Part shown: positions 3,827-49,390 of the stretch, piece after piece
Layout of the letters: each line of letters starts with the position of its first letter
Position numbering within the stretch: position 1 is the first letter of the stretch
Sequence record: NC_054920.1
From: Escherichia phage vB_EcoM_G9062
Length of the DNA stretch: 64,000 nucleotides
Direction: 5' to 3' (one strand)
Notes under the pieces: generated by a model
What the model was told of the DNA's origin: nothing
What the model saw: only the letters and a program-made list of their open reading frames with translations
The model's database searches: none
Position numbers and translations under genes: made by a program

Positions 3827-5451
<1,625 letters not shown>

Positions 5452-12157: not shown

Positions 12158-13576
12158 TTATGGATAGGTATAGATGATACCAGTTTCTAAAGCAGTTTTA
12201 TGAATGATGTATCCATTACGCGATTCTTGAACATCAACTTCTGGATAGTCTTTCATCATCTTCTGAAGAGTGTAACGATGTAGGTAATATTTACTATCTG
12301 GGTCGTCAGTTTTCCAATCTTTACCTTCTTCGGTCATTTTTTGGATTTCATCCATAACCCACCAACCGCACCAGATATAAGCTGAAGTACGATGTGGAAG
12401 AGGATGAACATAAGGTAGTTCACCTTCTGGTTCTGGAGCAACTTTATCAGTTACCTGAACTTGACCTTCTGCTGTAATAGTTTTGCTATCGTAATCAGTT
12501 GCAGTAACGACAGCAGTAACTTCAATAGTTTGACTTCCAACAGATGAGGTATCGACAGTATATACGTTAGTTGACCCTTCTACAGGAGAAGAATCTTTCT
12601 TCCATGAGTAAGTAATTTGTGCTTCTTCTGGAGCACCCGTAACATTAGCCGTAAATGTAGCCGAAGCATCTTGCTGAACATTAATAGAAGGAGGAGTCAA
12701 TGTAACCTGTGGATTCATTGTCTTCTTATTAACTGTCAATGATACTTCATTAGAAGTAACTTCCTTTTCATTGTAATTTTCAGCAGTTACTTGGGCTACG
12801 CATTTAATTCTTTTTACTCCACTTGTAGTTGGAGTATAGCTAAATGTAGAGTTAGTTTCTCCACCAACTTGTGAATCATCTACATACCACTGATACGTAG
12901 CAGACGCTCCATCAGGTTGAGAAGCTAAGGCAGCAGTAAATTGAACTGGGGTTCCGATTACTCCCGCTGGAGGACTATCAGGAGTTACTGCCAAAGTAGT
13001 TGTCTGCGTCTTTTTATTAACAGTTAGTGACACTTCATTGGAAGTAACTTCCTTTGTATCATAATCTGTCGCGGTTACTTGAGCTACGCACTTAATTGTT
13101 TTAACTCCGCTTGCGTCAGGAGTGTAATTGAATGTAGTGCTAGTTGCTTCGCCCACAGGAGAACCGTCAACGTACCATTGATACGTAGCGTTTGCACCTG
13201 ATGGCTGTGAAGCTAAGGCAGCGGTAAATTCAATTGGAGTTCCAATCACTCCAGCATCAGGGCTACCAGGAGTTACTGCCAAAGTAGTTGTTTGTGTCTT
13301 ATTTTGAACTGTGATAGTTGTACTAATTTCAGCTGTTTCAGGTTCAGATTCTGCAACTTGATTGGTTGCAACTACTTTAATAGTCTTTTGACCGGCAGGT
13401 CCTTTTAGTACATAACTAAAAGTTGCTGACGTTTCTTCCTGTGGAGCGTCGTCTACAGTCCAAGCATATGTAATAGTTCCGCCTCCAGTTTCACCACTGG
13501 GTGTAGCAGTAAACTGCTTAGTTTCATCAATAACCCCTGTCGGTGTTTTAGGAGTTATATCAACTGTAAAAGTCAT
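12158..13576 (-). CDS. hoc: highly immunogenic outer capsid protein Hoc, with four Ig-like domains
   Basis: 472 aa; N-terminal Ig-like domains and C-terminal capsid-binding region as in T4 Hoc (376 aa as recalled); two adjacent ~96-aa domains are ~80% identical. Confidence 0.85.
   Translation of the reverse strand: MTFTVDITPKTPTGVIDETKQFTATPSGETGGGTITYAWTVDDAPQEETSATFSYVLKGPAGQKTIKVVATNQVAESEPETAEISTTITVQNKTQTTTLAVTPGSPDAGVIGTPIEFTAALASQPSGANATYQWYVDGSPVGEATSTTFNYTPDASGVKTIKCVAQVTATDYDTKEVTSNEVSLTVNKKTQTTTLAVTPDSPPAGVIGTPVQFTAALASQPDGASATYQWYVDDSQVGGETNSTFSYTPTTSGVKRIKCVAQVTAENYNEKEVTSNEVSLTVNKKTMNPQVTLTPPSINVQQDASATFTANVTGAPEEAQITYSWKKDSSPVEGSTNVYTVDTSSVGSQTIEVTAVVTATDYDSKTITAEGQVQVTDKVAPEPEGELPYVHPLPHRTSAYIWCGWWVMDEIQKMTEEGKDWKTDDPDSKYYLHRYTLQKMMKDYPEVDVQESRNGYIIHKTALETGIIYTYP
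12722..13009 (-). repeat. Hoc Ig-domain tandem repeat, copy B (residues ~190-285)
   Basis: TQTTTLAVTPDSPPAGVIGTP...EVSLTVNKK, about 80% aa identity to copy A. Confidence 0.8.
13010..13300 (-). repeat. Hoc Ig-domain tandem repeat, copy A (residues ~93-189)
   Basis: KTQTTTLAVTPGSPDAGVIGTP...EVSLTVNKK, repeated directly downstream. Confidence 0.8.
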
Positions 13577-24680: not shown

Positions 24681-24734
24681 TCCTCATGTTATGTCAGTAA
24701 GACTACTATAACACAACACGAGGGACTTGTAAAC
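24681..24734 (-). repeat. 54-bp perfect direct repeat, copy A (early promoter plus leader)
   Basis: Identical to 40544..40597 over 54/54 nt. Confidence 0.95.
24705..24734 (-). promoter_or_regulatory. T4-type early promoter (GTTTAC-N18-TGnTATAGT), copy A of a 54-bp repeat
   Basis: Minus strand GTTTACaagtccctcgtgttgtgtTATAGT followed by a leader with GAGGA RBS. Confidence 0.6.
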
Positions 24735-26791
24735 TACATTTTGAACTTTTTAGACATTCCGTTGATGTTAACCAAAGAAGCTAAGATTTGAGAAACTTCG
24801 CTTTCCTCTTCTTTTGATTCTTCTACAAGGAATTGATTAAATCCAGCCATTGGACGAACTTCACCAGTTTCCATTAGATGGTCGCCATCATATACTGATT
24901 CTTCTAATTGTTCAGAAGGAGGAACGATTGTACCTTCGATTAGATACTTGTTATAAGCAGTTTCTTTCATAAAGTAAGTACTTACTTTATTAATCTTCAG
25001 TAAAATTCCACGTGGTAGAATAACTTCAGCTTCTGACGGAAATCCTGATAAATGACCCGGAACGATAACTTTGATTCGCTCAGCTCCTTTAATTACCATA
25101 CCCACGCTAGTTTCAGCATCTTCATTAGCATATGTAGAATGACTACCCATATGCATCAAATCTTCTGCATCAACGGAACCTTCTCCTTCACCAGAAAATA
25201 CTGCGCCGGAATCATCTAGAGCCATATAGTTTTTACCATGCTCACCGAAGATATTTGGTTTAAGCGATGTGGATACGAAGTTCTTGAAATAGAACATTTT
25301 ATTTTCAATGTTATGACGCAAAGTTTTAAAGGTAACTTCTTGTCCACGGTAAAGTGTAGTTCCTGGAGGAAGAACTGAACCTTTAGCGAATGCAGAATCA
25401 AGCGTCTCAATATGTTTAATAGCTCGTTCCATATATTCTTCACGGGTAGAATCTGGTTTACCCAAAAGGAACGAGTTCATTTCAACATATGAATCTGCAC
25501 AATAATCTTCAATTACATCAGATTCAGCTTGAGTTAATCCTTTTGGAGTTACTTCAGTGCTTGCGTATTCATATGCCTGAGCAGCAGATTCATTAATCAA
25601 TTTATAAATGCCATTCATGACAAATTGAATAATAGCTGTCTTTTCATCTGGCGTAGCTTTAGAACCTTTAACCAAATCATTGATAATTTTCTTAATAACA
25701 TCAAAGCTATTAGAAATATTAATATCAGCAAGATCGCTTAAAATTTTATCAGTCTTATAATCAAAGAATTCTTTATTCTTTAAATATTCTTGAGAACCTT
25801 GATATGTTATATCGCTCTGTAACTTGATAGATGGATCACGTAAACGTGCATGGGCTAATGCAATATGATTTCGGAAGCTTTCGAGTTCATAATCACTAGA
25901 TTTAAAACGAGAAGCGCTTCTCATACCGCCTATAGCTCCTTTGCTGAAGTTTGAACCAATTTGAATAACGCCAGAGTTCATTGGTCCTTCTGCTTTATAC
26001 ACCGGAACTTTAGATTCAAACTCTTGATATTTCTTAGCAGCGAAGCTATCACCCTGAAGTGAAGCATCAACAGTAGAATATTGAGCTTGTGCTGCTAATC
26101 GACGACTAATTTTAGTTTTTTGAATAACAGCTTGATCCGTGCGCTTATCATTTTCTAAAGCAATAGAAGCAGCAACAGCGACAGCTTTAGGAACAGCATT
26201 ACCTGTTTTAACATCTACATAAACATCACCGACCTTCGATTCAACTTTTGTGAATAACTCAGTTGAAATAGGAGGTACACCTGGAATGTCTTCTAAATTG
26301 GCATTTTTACGGTAAACCATAATATATGCATACTTTTTATCATAGTCCCAGATTTCCTTTAAAAGAACATATCGACCTGCTCCTTTAGTACGTACTAAAC
26401 GGTCAGCAATAACTTGCATTTGACGAGCAGCGCCATTTGTTTTACTCTTTAGTACGCGGAATAAGCATGCATCAATTTTATACTGTTTCATTGTTTGAAG
26501 AGCAGTATCAAAAACAGCGTTAATGACGCCAATTGGATTTCCACCCAAGTTTCTAAGTTTAACCAGTGATAATTTCTCGTTGACACCTATCATTACGATA
26601 TGCATCATTTTATCGCCCGGCTTAACGTTTTTATTTGTATCACCTCCAGAGGTGTATGTACAAAATCTAAATCCAGGAAGCACGCTTTCTTCGCCGGCTT
26701 GAATAGCAAAAATTTGAGGTATTTTATGCTTAGGATTTAAGTTAACAACCGGCGCCGAAGCGCCGTCAAATAATTCTGTAATAAGTTCCAT
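24734..26791 (-). CDS. Alt-like ADP-ribosyltransferase paralog (second copy)
   Basis: 685 aa; N-terminal ~230 aa closely similar to the adjacent Alt; catalytic R-S-E motifs present (LYRGQ, FVSTSL, EAEVILPRG); central region divergent. Confidence 0.85.
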   Translation of the reverse strand: MELITELFDGASAPVVNLNPKHKIPQIFAIQAGEESVLPGFRFCTYTSGGDTNKNVKPGDKMMHIVMIGVNEKLSLVKLRNLGGNPIGVINAVFDTALQTMKQYKIDACLFRVLKSKTNGAARQMQVIADRLVRTKGAGRYVLLKEIWDYDKKYAYIMVYRKNANLEDIPGVPPISTELFTKVESKVGDVYVDVKTGNAVPKAVAVAASIALENDKRTDQAVIQKTKISRRLAAQAQYSTVDASLQGDSFAAKKYQEFESKVPVYKAEGPMNSGVIQIGSNFSKGAIGGMRSASRFKSSDYELESFRNHIALAHARLRDPSIKLQSDITYQGSQEYLKNKEFFDYKTDKILSDLADINISNSFDVIKKIINDLVKGSKATPDEKTAIIQFVMNGIYKLINESAAQAYEYASTEVTPKGLTQAESDVIEDYCADSYVEMNSFLLGKPDSTREEYMERAIKHIETLDSAFAKGSVLPPGTTLYRGQEVTFKTLRHNIENKMFYFKNFVSTSLKPNIFGEHGKNYMALDDSGAVFSGEGEGSVDAEDLMHMGSHSTYANEDAETSVGMVIKGAERIKVIVPGHLSGFPSEAEVILPRGILLKINKVSTYFMKETAYNKYLIEGTIVPPSEQLEESVYDGDHLMETGEVRPMAGFNQFLVEESKEEESEVSQILASLVNINGMSKKFKM

Positions 26792-26794
26792 GAT

Positions 26795-28846
26795 TTATCC
26801 TTGAACGAACTTGTAAGGCATGTTTGCAATATCTATGCAAGACGCAATAATTCCAAGAGATGATTCTACTTTCTGTTTAACATTTGATGAAACAAATGAT
26901 GCAAAGTCAACTCTATCTTCTATATCACCTGTCATTGTAACCAATTCACCAGTTTCCATTAAATGGTCTCCGTCATAGATTACCGATTCGGTGAGTTCTT
27001 CTGTGGTCATAACTTCAGCTTGAATAAGCTTGTTGTTAGTTTTAACTGTTCCATCATTGTAAGATGCATCGGTTATTTTATTAACTTTGACCATTAATCC
27101 ACGTGGCAAAATGACTTCCATTTCATTTGAAGGTGCTAAACTTCCACCGGGTAAAACAACATTGACCTTATCAGCCCCAGTAATAACCCATCCAATTCCA
27201 ACTAAATTATCGCTAGAATTTACTAGTCCTTCATCAGTTTTATCAATAGAAACACTTAGACGCTTTTCGTCTGGTAAAACACCTACAGATGAATCAGTCA
27301 TCCAAGTACCAAAAATATTTGGATATAATGATGTTGACACAAAGTTTCTAAAATAAAAAACTCGATTTTTTACCATTGCTTCATATATTGAAGGTAACAT
27401 TCGTTGTGAACGATACAAAGTAATACCTTTTGGTAATCGTTCACCATTTTTAAAGGCTGAATCTAAATTATCAATAGCTTTTTCTATGTCAGATGCTGTC
27501 AAAATACTTGTACGCTCATCTGGATTATATAATCCCAAAAGAGCATTATTTATATCTACATATCCTGAACCTACGTATTCACGAATTCCGCGTTTTTGCG
27601 CCGGTGTGTATTTAGATGAATCTTTATTTTCGACTATAGGATGTAATGACCATCCAGCTGTAAGAGCATATCCACGTAATTCTCTTCGAATAATCTTTGT
27701 TTTTATTGCATTCCAAGAATTTTGTACTAACTCATTTGCAGCATCTTGGTTTAAATGCGAATGTTTGTTAATATTTCTTTCAAACCAAGCACCTTTATAT
27801 TTTTCTAAAGTATCATCGACGATAGAAGCAATAGTTTCTAAAGTTTTTATTGAAGTAATAGATTCTTTTCGTAATCTTTCTAAAGCTTTATTTTTTATTT
27901 CTGTATTAACATCAGATTCTTTATCTTCAGGAATTATAGAAGCTTCTCTGAATGCCATTCCAGCTGTAACACTATTAAGAGCATTCTCTAATGCAAATCC
28001 TGAAGTAGAAATAACAGTTAATTCGTTAGCATCGGAAATTAAAGGCGCATCAGCGGGTTTATTTAATTCTGCTGCTGAAGCCTCAAATTTTTGAAACATC
28101 GGTGTTTCAAATCTAGAAGATTCCAATGATTGACTTTGCGCAATTGCTCTACGGGAAATTTTAACTTTAACGATTACAGCTTGGTCAGAACGTTTATCAT
28201 TTTCTTGTGCAATAGATGCTGCAATTGCCTCATTTTTAGTTACTTGAGCTCCAGTATCTTTATTGATATAAACATCACCGACCTTCGATTCAACTTTAGT
28301 AAAGAGCTCGGTACTAATTTCTGGAACTCCTGGAATGTCTTCTAGTGATACATTTTTGCGATGTATAAGAATATATGCATACTTTTTATCATAATCCCAG
28401 AGTTCCTTAAGAAGGACGTATCTGCCGCCTGAACGACTACGGATAAGTCTATCAGCAATAACTTGAATTTGTCGAGCTTGACCAGCGGTTTTAGACTTAA
28501 GAATACGGAGCATACAAGCATCAATTTTATATTGACGCATTGTTTGCATTGCAACAGTAAAAACTGAATTGATATAATTAATTGGGCTTGGCCCAAGACC
28601 TTTCAATTTAGCAATTGAACCTTTAGCGGTTAATGTAAAAGGAACAATATGCATCATTTTATCGCCCATTTTTAAATCGCGATTAGTATCACCTCCAGAT
28701 GTATAGGTACATAAACGAAAGCCTGGCTGTTCAATTGCATCATCAACGTGAACTGAAAAAATTTGCGGTATTTTCTTCTTTGGATTTAAGTTTGTAATCG
28801 GAAGAGTAGTATCTTCGTCAAATAATTCTGTAATGAGTTCCATCAT
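26795..28846 (-). CDS. alt: Alt ADP-ribosyltransferase (capsid-packaged, injected)
   Basis: 683 aa, matches T4 Alt as recalled; R-S-E motifs (LYRSQ, FVSTSL, EMEVILPRG). Confidence 0.92.
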   Translation of the reverse strand: MMELITELFDEDTTLPITNLNPKKKIPQIFSVHVDDAIEQPGFRLCTYTSGGDTNRDLKMGDKMMHIVPFTLTAKGSIAKLKGLGPSPINYINSVFTVAMQTMRQYKIDACMLRILKSKTAGQARQIQVIADRLIRSRSGGRYVLLKELWDYDKKYAYILIHRKNVSLEDIPGVPEISTELFTKVESKVGDVYINKDTGAQVTKNEAIAASIAQENDKRSDQAVIVKVKISRRAIAQSQSLESSRFETPMFQKFEASAAELNKPADAPLISDANELTVISTSGFALENALNSVTAGMAFREASIIPEDKESDVNTEIKNKALERLRKESITSIKTLETIASIVDDTLEKYKGAWFERNINKHSHLNQDAANELVQNSWNAIKTKIIRRELRGYALTAGWSLHPIVENKDSSKYTPAQKRGIREYVGSGYVDINNALLGLYNPDERTSILTASDIEKAIDNLDSAFKNGERLPKGITLYRSQRMLPSIYEAMVKNRVFYFRNFVSTSLYPNIFGTWMTDSSVGVLPDEKRLSVSIDKTDEGLVNSSDNLVGIGWVITGADKVNVVLPGGSLAPSNEMEVILPRGLMVKVNKITDASYNDGTVKTNNKLIQAEVMTTEELTESVIYDGDHLMETGELVTMTGDIEDRVDFASFVSSNVKQKVESSLGIIASCIDIANMPYKFVQG

Positions 28847-36480: not shown

Positions 36481-36713
36481 AGTACGCCATACACCCTTTG
36501 TGCTTCAACTAATCCATCAAAATCCAATTTGAGATGTGTTATTTGGTCACCATCACCTGGATTCACAATTACTAATACCGAACGAGGAGTTTCGGTAATA
36601 ACACGAACCGACGTTTCAGGAAATCGTTCAGAAACCTTATTTACCAATTCTTGAGCAAATAGTTTAACTTTTTCTTGGAATTCTTTAACAGTAATTGGTT
36701 TTTCGCTTAGCAT
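36477..36713 (-). CDS. hypothetical protein (cd.2-like)
   Basis: 78-aa ORF. Confidence 0.6.
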   Translation of the reverse strand: MLSEKPITVKEFQEKVKLFAQELVNKVSERFPETSVRVITETPRSVLVIVNPGDGDQITHLKLDFDGLVEAQRVYGVL

Positions 36714-37234
36714 GTTGATCCTAGCTCCTTACTTTCAACATTTTTAACTAATTTGACAGAAACTAATTCAGCATCTTGGGTAATCATTACCGGACCTTCT
36801 TCATGCTCTTCAAGATATTCTAGAGCTTTCTTTTTAGCTTCTTCCTTCGTATCAGTTTGAGCATAGATATAGAACATACAACCAGTAATACCTACTACTT
36901 TCCACTTAATTTCTTTATCAGTTTTAATTTCAAATTTACTTACAGAATCATCTTTTTGAACTTCTTCGAAAAAAGAATATTCTAACATATAAGCAATTGA
37001 AAATAACGGGCTAACTTTATAGGATTCACCCATTACATCAACAGCTTTATACCAACAATCATCAATTTCACGTTTAATGCTAATAACATTTTTCGCAGGA
37101 TCTATTTTTACTTTAAATGAATTTTCCCCAATAAACTGGGCAATTCGTTTATTGGCCCCGCAAGTTTCATTAAAAATATCTTTATATCCAGCTTTAAAGC
37201 GATAAACCTTATCTTCTTCAAACCATTCGCTCAT
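36707..37234 (-). CDS. hypothetical protein (cd.3-like)
   Basis: 175-aa ORF. Confidence 0.6.
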   Translation of the reverse strand: MSEWFEEDKVYRFKAGYKDIFNETCGANKRIAQFIGENSFKVKIDPAKNVISIKREIDDCWYKAVDVMGESYKVSPLFSIAYMLEYSFFEEVQKDDSVSKFEIKTDKEIKWKVVGITGCMFYIYAQTDTKEEAKKKALEYLEEHEEGPVMITQDAELVSVKLVKNVESKELGSTC

Positions 37235-42215: not shown

Positions 42216-43394
42216 TTAAAAATATTTTTTAAAACTCATCATAACTTTATCATCAACATCATTATCAATCTGTGCTACAAGATAAGATGACAGTTCTACT
42301 TCTTGTGGCGCGGATTGAACATTATCAGAATTAAGATATTCACGAATCCAAGGATACGGATGTTTAACCGGAGCATCGGTAATTGGGCATGGAAGACCGC
42401 ACTGTTTCATACGAGATACAGTTAAGTAATCAATAAAGCTCCACATGCTATTTGTATTTAATCCAGGAACATCGCCATCTTTAAATAAATGAACTGCCCA
42501 GTCTTTTTCTTGACGGTTAACTTCCATGAAAATATCAACTGCTTCTTGTTCACACTCTTTGGCAATTTTAACCCATTCATCACCATCAGTGCCAAGTTGA
42601 AGTTGACGAATAATATATTGTGTACCTTTAAGATGAAGCTGCTCATCACGTGCAATGAACTTCATAATCTTGGCATTACCTTCCATGATTTCCATGTTTT
42701 TATGGAAGTTAAAGGTACACGCAAAGGATACATAAAAACGAATAGCTTCTAATGCATTAATAACGTGCAAACAGAGGTAAAGAGATTTCATTAGCTCACG
42801 CTTCCAATATGTCTCATGCTCAATAGCATCTTCAATAACGTCTTCGTCTGCATTAATTTCTTTTTGGTATTCGATATCAGCTTTAGCGTTTTCCCAATAA
42901 CGAGTTTTAATCAGAACATCATCATAATAACGTCCAATGGATTCAGCACGTTTCATAATAGCTTCATCTAATACAATTTCATCAAATACCTTCGATGGAT
43001 CAGTATAAAGATTTCGCATGATATGAGTATATGAACGACTGTGAATAGTTTCACTAAAAGTCCATGTAGCAACCCATGTATCAAGACTTGGGTCTGAAAT
43101 TAACGACATAAGTACAGCAGATGGTGCACGACCCTGAATGCTATCCAAAAGTGATTGATACTTCAAGTTGTTAGTAAAAATATCTTGCTGATATTGAGGA
43201 AGCTTGTTAAATTGCGCAGCATCCATCATTAAGTTTACTTCTTCAGGACGCCAGAAAAATGACAACTGCTTTTCGGTTAAATCTTCAAAAACTTTATGAC
43301 GTTGAATATCATAACGCGCAATACCAAGACCTGAACCAAAAAACATAGGTTCTTTTAAAACATCAACTGGATTTGTATTAAAAACTGTGCTCAT
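42216..43394 (-). CDS. nrdB: ribonucleotide reductase small subunit NrdB (intron-less)
   Basis: Continuous ORF from the ATG at 43394 (MSTVFNTNPVDVL...); no interruption of the kind the T4 nrdB intron makes. Confidence 0.93.
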   Translation of the reverse strand: MSTVFNTNPVDVLKEPMFFGSGLGIARYDIQRHKVFEDLTEKQLSFFWRPEEVNLMMDAAQFNKLPQYQQDIFTNNLKYQSLLDSIQGRAPSAVLMSLISDPSLDTWVATWTFSETIHSRSYTHIMRNLYTDPSKVFDEIVLDEAIMKRAESIGRYYDDVLIKTRYWENAKADIEYQKEINADEDVIEDAIEHETYWKRELMKSLYLCLHVINALEAIRFYVSFACTFNFHKNMEIMEGNAKIMKFIARDEQLHLKGTQYIIRQLQLGTDGDEWVKIAKECEQEAVDIFMEVNRQEKDWAVHLFKDGDVPGLNTNSMWSFIDYLTVSRMKQCGLPCPITDAPVKHPYPWIREYLNSDNVQSAPQEVELSSYLVAQIDNDVDDKVMMSFKKYF

Positions 43395-44125
43395 AAATTT
43401 TTCCTCTTTAAAATTCTGCCGTGTTTCCAACCTGGCGGTATAATATCATCTTTACCTATAAGCGTGCATTCACTTCCATTATTAATCCATTTCTTACCGC
43501 GGATTCCTTTATAATCTCTTGGTTTTATTTTGTCAAACTTTGCATCAAGTTGATATGACCATCTAAATCCATAAGCATATTGAAATTTACCCTCGGCACA
43601 ATATTTGATATTTGACCCGTTTCCATTAACTGACCGGGACGCTGCCGCAATAGAGTGAAAGGTTTCTATGAAATCCCCATCTAATGAGAATTTATGTATT
43701 TCTACAGATGGGCACGCATATCTATTCACGTTAGATACATGCTGTTTAGTTTCGTTTTTATGATGCTTGCCTAGCATCCCTTTAGGATGAGGATTATTTT
43801 TCCAATATTTCTTAAAGAACTCAGAATTAGCTTTAGCAAATAATTTTCTGTGTAAGCTGTACAATCTGTTATTAATTCTATTGCCAGCTTTATCTGTTGC
43901 CATTAACGTTAACGCAGAGGCAAGACCAAAATGGCCTTCATTTATCTTACATAGTAATAGATGAGCTATAAAATGTTCTCTGGCTGTTAATTCAACTAAA
44001 TTTTCCTTATCATCAGAACCTCCCATACATTTAGGGATTATATGATGTGTCTCTTTATATTCTAGTAAAGATTCCCGAGCCTGAGCTCGGGAAATTAGGT
44101 CGTTATAGATTTTTTGATAATTCAT
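43391..44125 (-). CDS. mobE: HNH homing endonuclease (MobE-like) between nrdA and nrdB
   Basis: 244 aa; HNH motif HHIIPKCMGGSDDKENLVELTAREHFIAH; stop overlaps the nrdB ATG (ATGA); same position as T4 mobE. Confidence 0.85.
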   Translation of the reverse strand: MNYQKIYNDLISRAQARESLLEYKETHHIIPKCMGGSDDKENLVELTAREHFIAHLLLCKINEGHFGLASALTLMATDKAGNRINNRLYSLHRKLFAKANSEFFKKYWKNNPHPKGMLGKHHKNETKQHVSNVNRYACPSVEIHKFSLDGDFIETFHSIAAASRSVNGNGSNIKYCAEGKFQYAYGFRWSYQLDAKFDKIKPRDYKGIRGKKWINNGSECTLIGKDDIIPPGWKHGRILKRKNL

Positions 44126-46389
44126 TACAATTTACACGCTGCGCAATCATCGGCTTTTGGAGTTTCTATTTCATAATCATCAGTACCAGAACCATCGCGG
44201 GTATTATGATAATAGAAATTTTTAATGCCATAATACCATCCGTATAGCATGTCATCAATCATTATTGACATTGGAACCTTTCCTTTTGGAAAAATCTGTG
44301 GGTCATAATATGTATTCGCTGAAGCTGATTGACATACCCATTTCAGCATAATAGCTACCTGCGTAAGATAAGGTTTATTACCTTTCTTAGCTAATTTCCA
44401 TGTATAATCATAGAGGTCTATGTTATGTTCAATATTGGGCACGACTTGATTAAAGGAACCCTCTTTTGATTCTTTAACAGAGACTGGTCCACGTGGAGGC
44501 TCGATACCGTTTGTACTGTTAGAAACTTGGGAAGATGACTCACATGGCATAAGTGCTGATAATGTGCTATTACGGATGCCAAAGAGCTTAAGGTCTTCCC
44601 GCAGCGACGACCAGTCACAAACGTATTTTGGAGCTGCGATTTGGTCAATCTTTTTATTGTACCAGTCGATAGGTAATTCGCCTCGAGACCAACGAGTGTC
44701 TGAATAATATTCGCAAGGTCCTTTTTCTTTGGCGAGCTTAATGGATGCTTTAATGAGTCCATACTGTAATCTCTCAAATAGTTCATGTGTTAAATCGTTA
44801 GCATCTTCATAAGAAGCAAAGTTACTTGCCAGCCAAGCTGCATAGTTAGTAACACCTACACCAAGGTTTCGACGCTTTTTAGCTTTTTCTGCTTCAGGAA
44901 CTGGATATCCTTGGTAATCCAAAAGATTATCAAGAGCACGAACTTGAACTTCTGCTAATTCATTAATTTTATCTTGGTCTTGCCAATCGAAGTTATCCAG
45001 CACAAATGCAGATAACGTGCACAATCCAATTTCAGCATCAGGACTATTCACATCATTTGTTGGAATAGCAATTTCACAGCACAAGTTACTCTGACGAATA
45101 GGTGCCTTTTCACGAATAAACGGAGTATAGTTATTCGTATTATCAATGAACTGTACATAAATTCTTGCTGTTCCTGAACGTTCAGTCATGAGCAATTCAA
45201 ATAGTTCACGGGCTTTAATACGCTTTTTACGAATATTAGGGTCTTTTTCTGCTGCTTCGTATAATTCACGGAAACGGTCTTGGTCTTTAAAATAAGAATA
45301 ATAAAGCTCTCCACCCATTTCATGCGGACTGAACAAAGTAATGTAATCGTTCTTTCCGAATCGTTCCATCATCAAATCATTCAGTTGAACACCATAATCC
45401 ATATGACGAATGCGGTTTTCTTCTACGCCTTTGTTATTTTTCAAAACGAGAAGATTTTCAACTTCCAAATGCCAAATAGGATAATAAGCAGTAGCAGCGC
45501 CGCCACGAATTCCACCCTGTGAACATGATTTAACTGCAGTCTGAAAATGTTTCCAAAAAGGAATAACACCAGTATGGCGTACTTCACCCATGCCAATCTT
45601 AGAACCTTCGGCACGAATCATACCAACGTTAATACCAATTCCAGCGCGTTTAGAGATATATTCAACAATTGAAGCGGAAGCCTTGTTGATAGACTTTAAT
45701 GAATCACCTGCCTCAATAACAACACATGAACTAAACTGTCGAGTCGGAGTACGACAACCAGCCATAATAGGAGTTGGTAATGAAATCTGTCGAGTAGATA
45801 CTGCTTCATAAAAACGAATAACGTGTTTTAATCTATCAACAGGTTCATCTTGATGCAAGGCCATTCCAATAGTCATAAATGCAAACTGTGGAGTTTCATA
45901 AATTTGACCAGTGGTTTTATCTTTAACTAGATATTTTTCTTTTAATTGCATCGCCCCGGAATAAGTAAATTCCATATCCCGTTCGTGCTTAATTTTTGAT
46001 TCTAAAAATGTAATTTCTTCTGCTGAATATTTTGACAACAGTTCAGGGTCGTATTTACCTTCATTTACACAGTAAGAAATATGGTCAATAAATGAACGCG
46101 GTTCATACTGCCCATAAACATGCTTACGAAGAGCGAACATTAGACAACGTGCAGCTACATATTGATAATCAGGCTCTTCAACCGAAATAGAATTCGCAGC
46201 GGCCTTAATGACAATAGTCTGAATATCATCAGTTGTCATTCCATCACGGAGATAAGATTTAATATTTTCATATAATTCATAAGGATCTACTGATGTTCCC
46301 TCAGCTGCCCAAGATAAAACTTTAATAATTTTTTGTGGGTCAAAGCTCTGAGAAACACCACTACTTTTGATAACATTAATTAATTGCAT
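44125..46389 (-). CDS. nrdA: ribonucleotide reductase large subunit NrdA
   Basis: 754 aa, matches T4 NrdA. Confidence 0.95.
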   Translation of the reverse strand: MQLINVIKSSGVSQSFDPQKIIKVLSWAAEGTSVDPYELYENIKSYLRDGMTTDDIQTIVIKAAANSISVEEPDYQYVAARCLMFALRKHVYGQYEPRSFIDHISYCVNEGKYDPELLSKYSAEEITFLESKIKHERDMEFTYSGAMQLKEKYLVKDKTTGQIYETPQFAFMTIGMALHQDEPVDRLKHVIRFYEAVSTRQISLPTPIMAGCRTPTRQFSSCVVIEAGDSLKSINKASASIVEYISKRAGIGINVGMIRAEGSKIGMGEVRHTGVIPFWKHFQTAVKSCSQGGIRGGAATAYYPIWHLEVENLLVLKNNKGVEENRIRHMDYGVQLNDLMMERFGKNDYITLFSPHEMGGELYYSYFKDQDRFRELYEAAEKDPNIRKKRIKARELFELLMTERSGTARIYVQFIDNTNNYTPFIREKAPIRQSNLCCEIAIPTNDVNSPDAEIGLCTLSAFVLDNFDWQDQDKINELAEVQVRALDNLLDYQGYPVPEAEKAKKRRNLGVGVTNYAAWLASNFASYEDANDLTHELFERLQYGLIKASIKLAKEKGPCEYYSDTRWSRGELPIDWYNKKIDQIAAPKYVCDWSSLREDLKLFGIRNSTLSALMPCESSSQVSNSTNGIEPPRGPVSVKESKEGSFNQVVPNIEHNIDLYDYTWKLAKKGNKPYLTQVAIMLKWVCQSASANTYYDPQIFPKGKVPMSIMIDDMLYGWYYGIKNFYYHNTRDGSGTDDYEIETPKADDCAACKL

Positions 46390-46706: not shown

Positions 46707-46935
46707 ATTGTTTTTCCGTTAAAACAGTAATATCATAGTAACAATCAGAAGAAGTTTTAACTGTAGAAATTTTATTATCAAAATACTCACGAGTCATTTT
46801 ATGAGTATAATATTTTTTGCCATAAATGATAATAGGCTGATTTGGTCCTGGAACTTCTAGCTCACTTGGATTAGGAAGTGTAAAAAGAACTGCACCAGAA
46901 GTATCTTTAAATCGTAAAATCATATATCCTCGCAA
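46660..46935 (-). CDS. hypothetical protein (nrdA.2-like)
   Basis: 91-aa ORF. Confidence 0.55.
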
Positions 46936-46946
46936 TTAAATTGAAA

Positions 46947-47807
46947 TTACACCGCCATCTTTCCTTTAATTGGCGGGTGAGATACATAGTTGTTAAGAAC
47001 AAAATTATGCGGCTTTGCGAATTGACTCAACCAAAATACCTGTGATTCTGTACCCCATTCATCGAATTCATCTGGAAATTTTAATTGCAATTCGCATAAA
47101 TCCATAGGTTCACGACGCAAAATTTCTTTACATTGTTCTACGTGATTCATATAGATATGAGTATTACCACCAGAAAATATCAAATCTCCCGGAATAAGAT
47201 TACACATCTTAGCTACAATATGAACTAACGCAGCGTATGATGCAATGTTGAATGGCAAGCCCAAGAACACGTCAACACTTCTTTGATACCACTGTAAATC
47301 CAAATAGCCATTACGCACATTAAACTGATAGAACATATGACAAGGAGGTAATGCCATTTGCTTAAGTTCTGCCGGATTCCATGCTGAAACAATTTGACGC
47401 CTATCATTTGGCAGTTTTTTAATACGATCAATAACTTCTATAATTTGGTCTACACCGCCAAAATCACGCCATTGTTTTCCATAAATTGGACCAAGTTCAC
47501 CGCTATGGTATCCTAAATCTTTTGCTTGATTTTCGTAATTTTCATCCCAGACTGTTTTGCCTTGAATTAATGAATTATGTTGAATTAATCGCAAATCATT
47601 TACGTTAGTACTTCCTGATAAGAACCACAATAACTCAGAAATACATGCATTCCAGGCGAGCTTCTTAGTTGTTACTGCAGGAAAACCTTTAGTTAAATCC
47701 CAGCGTAATTTAGTACCGAACAAAGCAATTGTTCCTGTGCCTGTTCGGTCATCGGTTTCATAGCCATTTTCAAAAATGTCTTTAATTAAATCTTGGTATT
47801 GTTTCAT
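46947..47807 (-). CDS. td: thymidylate synthase (intron-less)
   Basis: 286 aa continuous ORF matching T4 Td exon product; no group I intron. Confidence 0.95.
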   Translation of the reverse strand: MKQYQDLIKDIFENGYETDDRTGTGTIALFGTKLRWDLTKGFPAVTTKKLAWNACISELLWFLSGSTNVNDLRLIQHNSLIQGKTVWDENYENQAKDLGYHSGELGPIYGKQWRDFGGVDQIIEVIDRIKKLPNDRRQIVSAWNPAELKQMALPPCHMFYQFNVRNGYLDLQWYQRSVDVFLGLPFNIASYAALVHIVAKMCNLIPGDLIFSGGNTHIYMNHVEQCKEILRREPMDLCELQLKFPDEFDEWGTESQVFWLSQFAKPHNFVLNNYVSHPPIKGKMAV

Positions 47808-47852: not shown

Positions 47853-48200
47853 TCAATACGGTTTAGCATCAAATTTTCTCTCAATTTCAGGCGTGAAATA
47901 TAATTCTTTACCGCGTTTGGAAAAGCGACCAATAATATGATAATTATTCTCATCAAACGTGATATTACCAATATCCATAGCTTTCAACCAAATATCGATA
48001 TTTCTATCCAGCTTTATGTCAAAATTCCAATACGGTGAACTATTACCGAAAATACTGCAAGCGGATTCAGTGAAACAACTGCTATAAATCTTGTCTTTAG
48101 GAACTACTAATTGATAGACACCTTTAATAAACTGAGGACCCTGCCACTTTGGCTGTTTCGTGTCTTTTTCTAATAGAATAGGGTAATAATTAAAATTCAT
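47853..48200 (-). CDS. hypothetical protein inserted between frd and td
   Basis: 115-aa ORF with ATG start; occupies the position where frd and td abut in T4 as recalled. Confidence 0.6.
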   Translation of the reverse strand: MNFNYYPILLEKDTKQPKWQGPQFIKGVYQLVVPKDKIYSSCFTESACSIFGNSSPYWNFDIKLDRNIDIWLKAMDIGNITFDENNYHIIGRFSKRGKELYFTPEIERKFDAKPY

Positions 48201-48219: not shown

Positions 48220-49046
<827 letters not shown>

Positions 49047-49057
49047 ATTATCTCCTA

Positions 49058-49390
49058 TTAAAAAGGATCAGGAACATATCCGCTAGCTTTAATCATTTTA
49101 ATTAACGTTAACATTCCTTTGTTAACTGCTCGTGAGATTTCATCAAAAACTTCATCACTAAAAAGTTCTAACACGCCCTTCTGAACTTTTAATTTACAGC
49201 CAACAATTTCGTCATCTCCTATAGTAAATTCGCTTCCGCCAATTCCGCCGAAAAACTTAATTACGCCAGTTAACTGTCTTCCACGAGAATATGGGTCGTG
49301 TGATAAAGTAATATGAGTCACCCCGGGTACAGTTTTAAATTGGCAGCGAATATTTACTTGTGAAATTCCAATTACATGAATGTCAGACAT
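49058..49390 (-). CDS. hypothetical protein (frd.2-like)
   Basis: 110-aa ORF. Confidence 0.6.
   Translation of the reverse strand: MSDIHVIGISQVNIRCQFKTVPGVTHITLSHDPYSRGRQLTGVIKFFGGIGGSEFTIGDDEIVGCKLKVQKGVLELFSDEVFDEISRAVNKGMLTLIKMIKASGYVPDPF

Follow-up and report, generated by a model that had tools for sequence, protein, structure and literature searches.

The open reading frame of 244 amino acids located between nrdA and nrdB of Escherichia phage vB_EcoM_G9062 was identified as mobE of the RB3 type, and in all likelihood represents an intact gene for a homing endonuclease of the MobE family. The mobE gene, a selfish nuclease gene found between these two ribonucleotide reductase genes in T4-like phages, has been known at the nrdA–nrdB locus for decades, and the gene described here is a known one, its exact allele being already in GenBank; the phage is a Tequatrovirus, and mobE occupies its nrdA–nrdB junction. 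Within the stretch of 64,000 nucleotides analysed (sequence record NC_054920.1; hereafter the window), mobE (43391..44125, minus strand) lies between two intact genes, the upstream nrdA (44125..46389, minus strand) and the downstream nrdB (42216..43394, minus strand), the latter carrying no intron. At the upstream border, the nrdA stop codon TAA (44125-44127) shares bases with the mobE start codon ATG (44123-44125) within the sequence TAATG (44123..44127, minus strand), and at the downstream border the mobE stop codon TGA (43391-43393) shares bases with the nrdB start codon ATG (43392-43394) within ATGA (43391..43394, minus strand). Both the position of the reading frame and its overlap with the nrdB start were found as described in the original prediction, which had been made from the sequence alone. 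Since the profile search gave a match to PHROG 655 "homing endonuclease" with E = 6e-57, and since the Pfam module NUMOD1 was detected above its cut-off (see below), it is not a chance open reading frame.

The gene of phage vB_EcoM_G2540-3 is identical in nucleotide sequence (100%) to mobE in the window, and the genes annotated as mobE in RB6 and RB3 are 95.9% identical. A total of 53 phage records contain full-length matches of the RB3 type at the same locus, with 95.9-100% nucleotide identity over 734-735 nt. MobE of RB3 (AY262130, ABI48926) is the same gene at the same locus with the same order of domains, and the gene is also found in RB5, RB6, RB7, RB9, and RB10 as "mobE / nrdB.2"; the RB3 and RB6 proteins differ from that of the window by eight amino acids. 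The RB3-type alleles mostly carry TAATG at the mobE/nrdB border, as does RB3, whereas the genes of the window and G2540-3 are longer by one codon than that of RB3 and overlap with nrdB through ATGA. The nrdB intron with I-TevIII, present in RB3 and RB6, is absent from the window.

The HNH motif noticed earlier in this reading frame was confirmed as HHIIPKCMGGSDDKENLVELTAREHFIAH at residues 27-55. It is included in a head segment (43961..44125, minus strand; nt 1-165, amino acids 1-55) that is common with T4/T6-type mobE and contains H27, H28, N42, H51, and H55; the nucleotide identity of this head is 93.6% to T4 and 100% to G2540, a T6-type phage. Upon alignment of 57 homologs, E25, H27, H28, P31, G36, N42, E50, H51, and H55 were all invariant, including the catalytic histidine position on the first strand of the motif (H27-H28 in HHIIP) and the structural asparagine and metal-binding His/Asn positions of the helix (N42, H51, and H55). 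The loss of catalytic residues, which the original prediction had named as the observation that would speak against it, was not seen in this alignment, and a free-standing HNH (His-Me finger) homing endonuclease gene with its catalytic residues kept is present at the mobE locus. The Pfam HNH profile (PF01844) scored 20.2 bits on this reading frame against a gathering cut-off of 21.4 (E = 6.6e-4). The AlphaFold model of MobE (pLDDT 90.8) includes a beta-beta-alpha core at residues 25-61, and the predicted structure shows the beta-beta-alpha-metal fold. The pN/pS ratio was 0.09-0.14 between the window allele and those of RB6, G28, ph0021, and Aplg8. No published cleavage or inheritance experiment was found for MobE of the RB3 type; the enzyme is judged to be probably active in homing at present.

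The designation MobE-like proved correct for residues 1-57, which are about 93% identical to T4 MobE, but not for the rest of the protein, which has a tail of another kind. By BLASTP, the RB3-type protein showed close similarity to T4/T6 MobE over amino acids 1-57 and weak similarity up to about amino acid 105, and gave no match with nrdB.1. Based on DNA alignment, BLASTP, and protein alignment, the tail segment (43395..43960, minus strand; amino acids 56-244, about 565 nt) has no DNA alignment to T4/T6 mobE. It contains a NUMOD1 DNA-binding module (PF07453; 43595..43687, minus strand; amino acids 147-177) with a score of 25.9 bits against a cut-off of 22.8, which is also present in homologs, and a C-terminal beta-hairpin module (KGIRGKKWINNG...IPPGWKHGR; 43412..43510, minus strand), which is conserved in the NUMOD1-type family on protein alignment, has predicted strands at residues 211-215 and 220-224, and has a putative function in DNA binding. 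In contrast, MobE of the T4/T6 type carries two NUMOD3 modules and a C-terminal CPHC...C zinc finger, and is 213 amino acids long in T6 and split in T4; full-length homology to this type is absent from the window protein. What is common between T4 MobE (NP_049844; PMC2790892) and the window is the locus, the TAATG coupling, the first 165 nt, the HNH motif, and the hairpin described below. Since only residues 1-57 resemble T4 MobE and the other three quarters form a DNA-binding tail of another kind, the protein is properly called RB3-type MobE. Two alleles, of which the RB3 type is the less studied, go by the name mobE; they have the same nuclease head, but their tails are unrelated, and for this reason the target mapping for T4 should not be assumed to hold for RB3-type phages.

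A search of PDB sequences with MobE gave only a marginal match (E = 0.092), to a group II intron maturase in its HNH domain. The best structural match to the MobE model is I-HmuI (PDB 1u3e), the intron-encoded HNH nicking homing endonuclease of Bacillus phage SPO1, at a sequence identity of 12-17%; the two have in common an HNH core without zinc-binding cysteines, after which helical and helix-turn-helix modules for DNA binding are laid out in extended form. I-HmuI has an N-terminal beta-sheet DNA-binding domain and is encoded within an intron, whereas MobE of the window has the HNH domain at its N-terminus and is free-standing. Other endonucleases are associated with the same group of genes. 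Hef of phage U5 replaces mobE at the same junction and targets nrdB (Sandegren et al. 2005, as cited in PMC2988022), but is described as a unique endonuclease outside the HNH class (PMC2988022) and is set apart from the window MobE by this description. MobE of Aeromonas phage Aeh1 and the endonuclease of Yersinia phage fPS-2 are, like the window MobE, free-standing, of the HNH type, and associated with ribonucleotide reductase; their genes, however, lie inside nrdA and split it, whereas both nrdA and nrdB are intact in the window.

MobE is the sole homing-type element within the 64-kb window, as had been proposed: no second open reading frame of the HNH or GIY-YIG homing type was found among those of the window. 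The statement that the genome is otherwise poor in mobile elements holds for this window, the only part examined. The td (46947-47807) and nrdB genes are uninterrupted, and no group I intron was detected by Rfam anywhere in the window; mobE itself is not inside such an intron, the reading frame adjoining two intact coding genes. Gene 24 directly follows gene 23 (83 nt between the reading frames) and uvsW directly follows inh (gap of 50 nt), without segD and segE, respectively, again in agreement with the earlier reading, and the gap between genes 32 and 59 is 100 nt. Alignment to T4 indicated that segD (789 nt), segE (635 nt), segG (623 nt), the nrdB intron (598 nt), and the td intron with I-TevI (1021 nt) are missing from the window, giving six homing-type elements for T4 and one for the window in the same stretch. 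A hidden second element was looked for among 10 candidate reading frames absent from T4, of which eight matched PHROG families (seven of unknown function and one DNA helicase) and two matched none; there was no nuclease among them. DenA is a GIY-YIG protein, yet it was rejected as a homing element, being 99% identical to T4 endonuclease II.

Near its 5' end, mobE contains a hairpin detected by terminator scan (44062..44093, minus strand), consisting of TTCCCGAGC-TCAG-GCTCGGGAA followed by UCUUUACUAG, with a predicted folding energy of -17.9 kcal/mol (z = -4.4). The sequence is identical to that in T4 mobE, for which, and only for which, a weak intrinsic terminator inside the gene was shown experimentally (PMC2790892); by analogy, the hairpin of the window is taken as its counterpart. 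No Shine–Dalgarno sequence was found for the mobE start, and the TAATG overlap together with this lack implies that translation of mobE is coupled to that of nrdA. [quoted passage not shown] In T4, a replacement promoter for nrdB is located within the cassette (PMC2790892), and the same is expected for the window. A pattern scan indicated a candidate MotA-type middle promoter for nrdB within the mobE tail (CGCTTAT-N12-TATTAT; 43440..43464, minus strand), which has one mismatch to TGCTT and is present in all eight RB3-type sequences (8/8). T-type phages carry the perfect sequence TGCTTAA-N12-TACAAT at 190 nt upstream of nrdB. The scan for sigma-70 promoters remained at chance level, with six sites against 5.9 expected.

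The junction was then compared between phages with and without mobE. By BLASTN against the empty-site phage G29, the inserted segment corresponds to 43402..44128 (minus strand), where 727 nt replace 48 nt of the 51-nt nrdA–nrdB spacer. In the census of this junction, about 408 phage records were empty and 53 carried the RB3-type gene; a further 59 or so records matched mobE partially, mostly over the first 165-170 nt, as do T4 and T6. Since a scan of IMG/VR with NrdB gave mostly other genera (the exact nrdB-start pattern was found at two loci only), Tequatrovirus genomes were taken singly from the phage collection. The window and the empty-site phage C2-3 agree at every position from -1400 to -185 of nrdA and over nt 1-670 of nrdB, so that across the compared flanks they differ only in the insert and in nrdA over its final 184 nt. 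G2540-3 is in turn identical to the window from -210 to -1 of nrdA, over the 730-nt insert, and over nt 1-179 of nrdB. The 3' end of nrdA with 22 substitutions relative to C2-3 (44126..44308, minus strand) has moved together with mobE, the left crossover being located between 44308 and 44335, and the G2540-3-like patch in the C2-3-like background measures 908-1119 nt. The patch is a natural homing footprint, in which flanking markers were co-converted with mobE. C2-3, the window, and G2540-3 can be regarded as a natural trio of recipient, product, and donor, by which one homing event is bounded to about 0.9-1.1 kb. A recent one-off chimera in the window phage was rejected, as three contigs from other, more distant T4-like genera (L012, L014, and L017) carry this full-length gene type at the nrdA–nrdB junction as well.

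The question is then which sequence the RB3-type enzyme recognizes. The counterpart of the nick region of T4 MobE, nrdB nt 114-131, is located at 43264..43281 (minus strand), with the nicks at nt 122-126 corresponding to 43269-43273. In the window this region is identical to that of empty-site phages, and codon 42 of nrdB reads AAG, the codon found in phages that lack mobE (PMC2790892). T-type genomes are marked by substitutions in the nrdB 5' part, both within the nick site and close to it, and for the T4/T6 type 15 differences are fixed between nt 6 and nt 141 of nrdB; these substitutions are absent from the window, and no fixed difference was found in nrdB nt 1-520 between RB3-type (n=8) and empty (n=9) genomes. 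The fixed differences between mobE-containing and empty genomes are confined to the last 28 nt of nrdA (-28, -25, -18, -15, -13, -4, and -2). In a second genus, comparison of the mobE-containing L017 with L035 gave 95-99.7% identity for nrdB and 82-90% for the 3' end of nrdA. Because T4 MobE has another tail and the window's own nrdB 5' end matches that of susceptible-looking empty-site phages, a target different from that of T4 MobE is tentatively favoured. On this view, the recognition site is most likely not nrdB nt 114-156 of T4; an overlap with the stretch of the empty allele altered by insertion, consisting of the 51-nt spacer and the final 28 nt of nrdA, is more probable. The nrdA substitutions are, however, common to RB3-type and T4/T6-type phages, and as nrdB is what the enzyme of the latter nicks, these changes may have hitchhiked instead of conferring immunity.

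The main competing explanation is that the RB3-type enzyme has the same target as T4 MobE, nicking nrdB on its non-coding strand around nt 122-126, with the different tail still reading the conserved FFWRPEE-coding block. The HNH head about 93% identical to that of T4 MobE, the same locus and cassette ends as T4 mobE, and the status of nrdB as the proven target of two endonucleases, MobE and Hef (PMC2988022), agree with this explanation. The converted tract can also take in nrdB nt 1-179, where donor and recipient agree, and so may be compatible with a break at nt 122-126. The explanation is considered unlikely, however: with nrdB nt 1-670 identical to C2-3, the enzyme would nick its own genome, the tail as the presumed DNA-binding part is unrelated to that of T4/T6, and the nrdB substitutions are carried by T-type genomes only. 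It is still less probable that mobE has lost mobility and is retained, inactive or re-used for instance as a regulator, for the sake of the nrdB promoter and the translational interlock with nrdA and nrdB. In T4, the promoter of the essential nrdB gene inside the cassette selects against deletion, and a regulatory role for MobE was left possible by Wilson and Edgell (2009; PMC2790892); the candidate promoter in the mobE tail of the window fits this explanation, but the pN/pS of about 0.1 over the whole protein and the invariant catalytic residues indicate that the enzyme is under selection, recent transfer with flanking DNA is shown by the clean donor patch within the C2-3-like background, and the presence/absence polymorphism of mobE recurs across genera. 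A decayed remnant of a homing endonuclease, for which the split T4 copy (mobE of 141 and nrdB.1 of 83 amino acids) and the 1-nt deletion at the extreme 3' end of the Aplg8 allele might be cited, is highly improbable and was ruled out by the conserved HNH residues, the low pN/pS, and the confident structure model, the reading frame of the window having its full length and aligning collinearly with homologs (241-248 amino acids) from several genera.

The likely mode of action is as follows. Transcription would start from the promoters upstream of nrdA, mobE having no promoter of its own, and, as extrapolated from T4, the hairpin terminator about 29 nt into mobE would damp the level of transcript; translation would take place by coupling to the termination of nrdA at TAATG. 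Upon mixed infection, the NUMOD1 and C-terminal modules would bind to the mobE-less allele of a related phage, the N-terminal HNH domain would nick or cut near the bound site, and repair off the mobE-containing genome would copy into the recipient a cassette consisting of the last 20-200 nt or so of nrdA, mobE, and the replacement nrdB promoter.

Published target-site logos pooled both types of mobE, and such logos would represent a mix of two specificities. It is possible, if rather doubtful, that two mobE alleles compete at the T-even junction with asymmetric replacement, the RB3 type reading the 3' end of nrdA plus the spacer and the T4/T6 type nicking nrdB. If so, RB3-type genomes with their T2-like nrdB would remain vulnerable to the T-type enzyme. 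Genomes of the T type, whose altered nrdA end is common with the RB3 type, would be immune to the RB3-type enzyme, and allele replacement would be asymmetric with crossovers within the 165-nt head that the two alleles have in common; a recombinant such as Aplg8, in which the RB3-type gene is combined with the nrdB 5' end of the T type, would be protected from either enzyme. The nrdA–nrdB locus may provide a simple setting in which to study competition of homing endonucleases for one site and the effect of a tail swap on the target of such an enzyme.

The 244-aa open reading frame with an HNH motif at 43391-44125 (minus strand), its stop overlapping the nrdB start, was confirmed on the ORF map and the sequence as originally predicted; the motif, HHIIPKCMGGSDDKENLVELTAREHFIAH, occupies residues 27-55. 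The ATG has one base in common with the TAA stop of nrdA (754-aa ORF) in TAATG (44123-44127, minus strand), and the TGA stop shares bases with the nrdB ATG in ATGA (43391-43394, minus strand). The product matched PHROG 655 "homing endonuclease" at 6e-57 in profile search and Pfam NUMOD1 above the curated cut-off, and is clearly not that of a chance ORF; the Pfam HNH score was slightly under its cut-off (20.2 versus 21.4 bits). Residues E25, H27, H28, P31, G36, N42, E50, H51 and H55 are invariant in 57 homologs, and a loss of catalytic residues is thereby ruled out. The AlphaFold model is confident (mean pLDDT 90.8) and shows a beta-beta-alpha core at residues 25-61, then a long helix. Residues 143-177 form a beta-beta-helix-helix unit, which is the NUMOD1 module, and the C-terminus folds into a small beta module. 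Comparison with the alleles of RB6, G28, ph0021 and Aplg8 gave pS of 0.14-0.18 and pN of 0.015-0.020, the pN/pS of about 0.1 indicating that MobE is under purifying selection.

The gene is already known in databases as mobE. The gene named "mobE, putative homing endonuclease" in RB3, RB5, RB6, RB7, RB9, RB10 and the older RB3 entry AY262130 is 95.9% identical in nucleotide sequence to that of the window, the copy of vB_EcoM_G2540-3 is 100% identical, and full-length genes of this type were found in 53 phage records. Protein search revealed two MobE families with a common head: the NUMOD1 type of 241-248 aa, including the window protein and its relatives in Yersinia, Citrobacter, Salmonella and Vibrio phages (50-77% identity), and the NUMOD3 type of 213 aa with a C-terminal CPHC...C zinc finger, carried by T6, slur04, G2540 and many others. 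The T4 copy belongs to the NUMOD3 type but is broken up, mobE coding for 141 aa and nrdB.1 for 83 aa; according to published genetics it is active despite the split. Between T4 and the window, nucleotide identity is about 94% over the 3' end of nrdA and the initial 165-170 nt of mobE; the following 565 nt are unalignable, and similarity restarts exactly at the nrdB ATG. Likewise, the two proteins are about 93% identical over residues 1-57 and faintly similar to about residue 105, with no similarity beyond, and T4 nrdB.1 gave no match to the window MobE at the protein level. The designation as MobE-like is thus valid for the head, while the remaining tail differs. Taken together, the window gene is a free-standing HNH homing endonuclease gene of the MobE family and belongs to the RB3 (NUMOD1) type; with the characterised T4/T6 type it is not homologous over its full length. 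In T4 (L001, 5717-6417), nrdB.1 corresponds to the C-terminal portion of the T6-type gene (213 aa), with NUMOD3 and the zinc finger, and the middle region of T4 MobE is unlike that of T6. In Aplg8 (L042, NC_054902), mobE is of the RB3 type and has lost 1 nt near the 3' end, the ORF extending 16 nt into nrdB; as this phage also carries T6-type nrdB 5' substitutions, it is a recombinant of the two allele lineages.

The nrdA-nrdB junction is uninterrupted in about 408 phage records, with a spacer of 51 nt. This spacer (e.g. 4395-4445 of the empty-site locus L004) is nearly invariant, starts with TATAAT, and contains the inverted repeat GACTC-ACGGAC-GAGTC. The site is empty in G29, the closest relative over the right-hand 25 kb, and the window carries 727 nt (43402-44128) in place of 48 nt. 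Another phage with the empty site, C2-3, shows no difference from the window over nrdA -1400 to -185 (counted back from the nrdA end) and nrdB nt 1-670; it is set apart only by the mobE insert and by 22 substitutions between nrdA -184 and -2. In G2540-3, identity to the window spans nrdA -210 to -1, all 730 nt of the insert and nrdB nt 1-179, with divergence outside. Based on the identity to C2-3 outside and to G2540-3 inside, the locus is a C2-3-like backbone into which a patch resembling G2540-3, 908-1119 nt long, has been set, the crossovers being located at 44308-44335 (left) and 43215-43401 (right). Such a patch is the trace left by homing with co-conversion. Other T4-like genera carry different nrdA-nrdB inserts, with gaps of 400-500 nt in contigs L018-L023, L030, L032 and L033 and of about 1600 nt in L028 and L037; in L018, a MobE-like HNH gene is located downstream of nrdB instead. 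In Yersinia phage fPS-2 (L054 1-1599, NC_054943), an annotated homing endonuclease gene splits nrdA, as in Aeromonas phage Aeh1, the nrdA-nrdB junction is empty, and nrdB contains an endonuclease-bearing intron.

The window derives from a Tequatrovirus, a T4-like coliphage, and runs collinear with about 97-161 kb of T4. None of the records in the phage collection matched the entire window at 99% or higher, and the window is a mosaic of known lineages. Alignment to T4 showed five elements to be missing, leaving 60 nt against 789 nt in T4 for segD, 19 against 635 for segE, 36 against 623 for segG, 0 against 598 for the nrdB intron with I-TevIII, and 4 against 1021 for the td intron with I-TevI; the intergenic distances on the ORF map are 83 nt (23/24), 50 nt (inh/uvsW) and 100 nt (32/59). 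The window contains no group I intron (Rfam) and no tRNA genes, and motif and BLASTP scans of all its ORFs detected no second HNH or seg-like gene. Ten ORFs without obvious T4 counterpart were chosen for PHROG scan; eight gave matches (seven of unknown function and one DNA helicase), two gave none, and no nuclease was found among the ten. The intronless state of td and nrdB and the lack of segD between 23 and 24 and of segE between inh and uvsW, all included in the original prediction, were borne out, and its claim of a sole homing-type element holds when limited to the window: within these 64 kb mobE is the only occupied homing-type site, against six in the same stretch of T4.

The intronless td (46929-47729) is 92-95% identical to the T4 exons and about 23% diverged from td of G29, though G29 is otherwise 98.7% identical; the I-TevI target gene thus holds an allelic block with sharp boundaries. 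Within nrdB, identity to T4 is 85.5% upstream of the T4 intron site (42719-43394) and 97.1% downstream, the step falling exactly at the intron insertion point. ORFs of unknown function absent in T4 are located between td and frd (115 aa, 47853-48200, minus strand, phrog_1928), in the cd region (175 aa, 36707-37234, minus strand, phrog_3710) and at 48801-49390 (81 and 110 aa, minus strand); none of these four is nuclease-like. Two full-length tandem alt-like (ADP-ribosyltransferase) genes at 24734-26791 and 26795-28846 (both minus strand; 685 and 683 aa; 41% mutual identity) differ from T4, in which a single alt gene is accompanied by two short remnants, alt.-1 and alt.-2. At the position of hoc, the ORF (12158-13576, minus strand) encodes 472 aa versus 376 aa in T4.

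In T4, mobE lacks its own promoter and shares a transcript with nrdA, about 30% of transcripts stop at a hairpin located 27 nt inside mobE, and nrdB has a middle promoter within the 3' portion of the mobE cassette (Wilson and Edgell, PMC2790892); the overlap of the mobE start with the nrdA stop suggests translational coupling (PMC2790892; also PMC2988022). The same TAATG overlap is present in the window, and so is a T4-identical hairpin (44072-44093, minus strand) predicted to be stable (-17.9 kcal/mol, z = -4.4). T-type phages, i.e. those with T4/T6-type mobE, carry a perfect TGCTTAA-N12-TACAAT, whereas the only MotA-type candidate in the mobE tail of the window, CGCTTAT-N12-TATTAT (43440-43464, minus strand), has one mismatch; an nrdB promoter there is therefore hypothetical. 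In empty-site phages TATAAT directly follows the nrdA stop, which fits the published position of their nrdB middle promoter, at the extreme nrdA end or in the spacer.

The nick made by T4 MobE in T2 nrdB falls on the non-coding strand at nt 122-126, and substitutions at nt 114-131 were proposed to protect mobE-containing genomes (Wilson and Edgell, PMC2790892). The target region was compared among eight RB3-type, four T4/T6-type and nine empty-site genomes. T-type and empty-site genomes show 15 fixed differences in nrdB nt 6-141; T-type genomes also carry a block of substitutions at nt 100-130, which is present in two empty-site phages as well, F1 and fPS-2. Between the eight RB3-type and nine empty-site genomes there is no fixed difference in nrdB nt 1-520, and codon 42 of RB3-type nrdB is AAG, the codon also found in phages lacking mobE. 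The sole fixed differences between RB3-type and empty-site genomes are at nrdA -28, -25, -18, -15, -13, -4 and -2, changing ...CSSCKL-TGA to ...CAACKL-TAA, and T-type genomes have them too. In another genus, nrdB of L017 (gene present) is 95-99.7% identical to that of L035 and L016 (empty sites), but identity is 82-90% over the final 600 nt of nrdA. We infer that, if the RB3-type enzyme distinguishes self from non-self by sequence, its site must overlap the part altered by the insertion, the nrdA end and the spacer. A break in nrdB at nt 122-126 is also possible, the converted tract including nrdB nt 1-179, in which donor and recipient are the same. The nrdA-end changes could also be mere hitchhikers. 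A target at the nrdA end and spacer would fit a different tail that recognises a different site.

Since the NUMOD1-type gene is located between nrdA and nrdB also in three more distant T4-like contigs (L012, L014 and L017; MobE identity 60-70%), it is an old resident of this junction and no recent accident. The first 165 nt of mobE are identical between G2540 (NUMOD3 tail) and G2540-3 (NUMOD1 tail), two phages from one study, indicating that head exchange between the two alleles is still going on. We also consider, as a reading that is less likely than not, that the two tails may confer two specificities competing for one locus.
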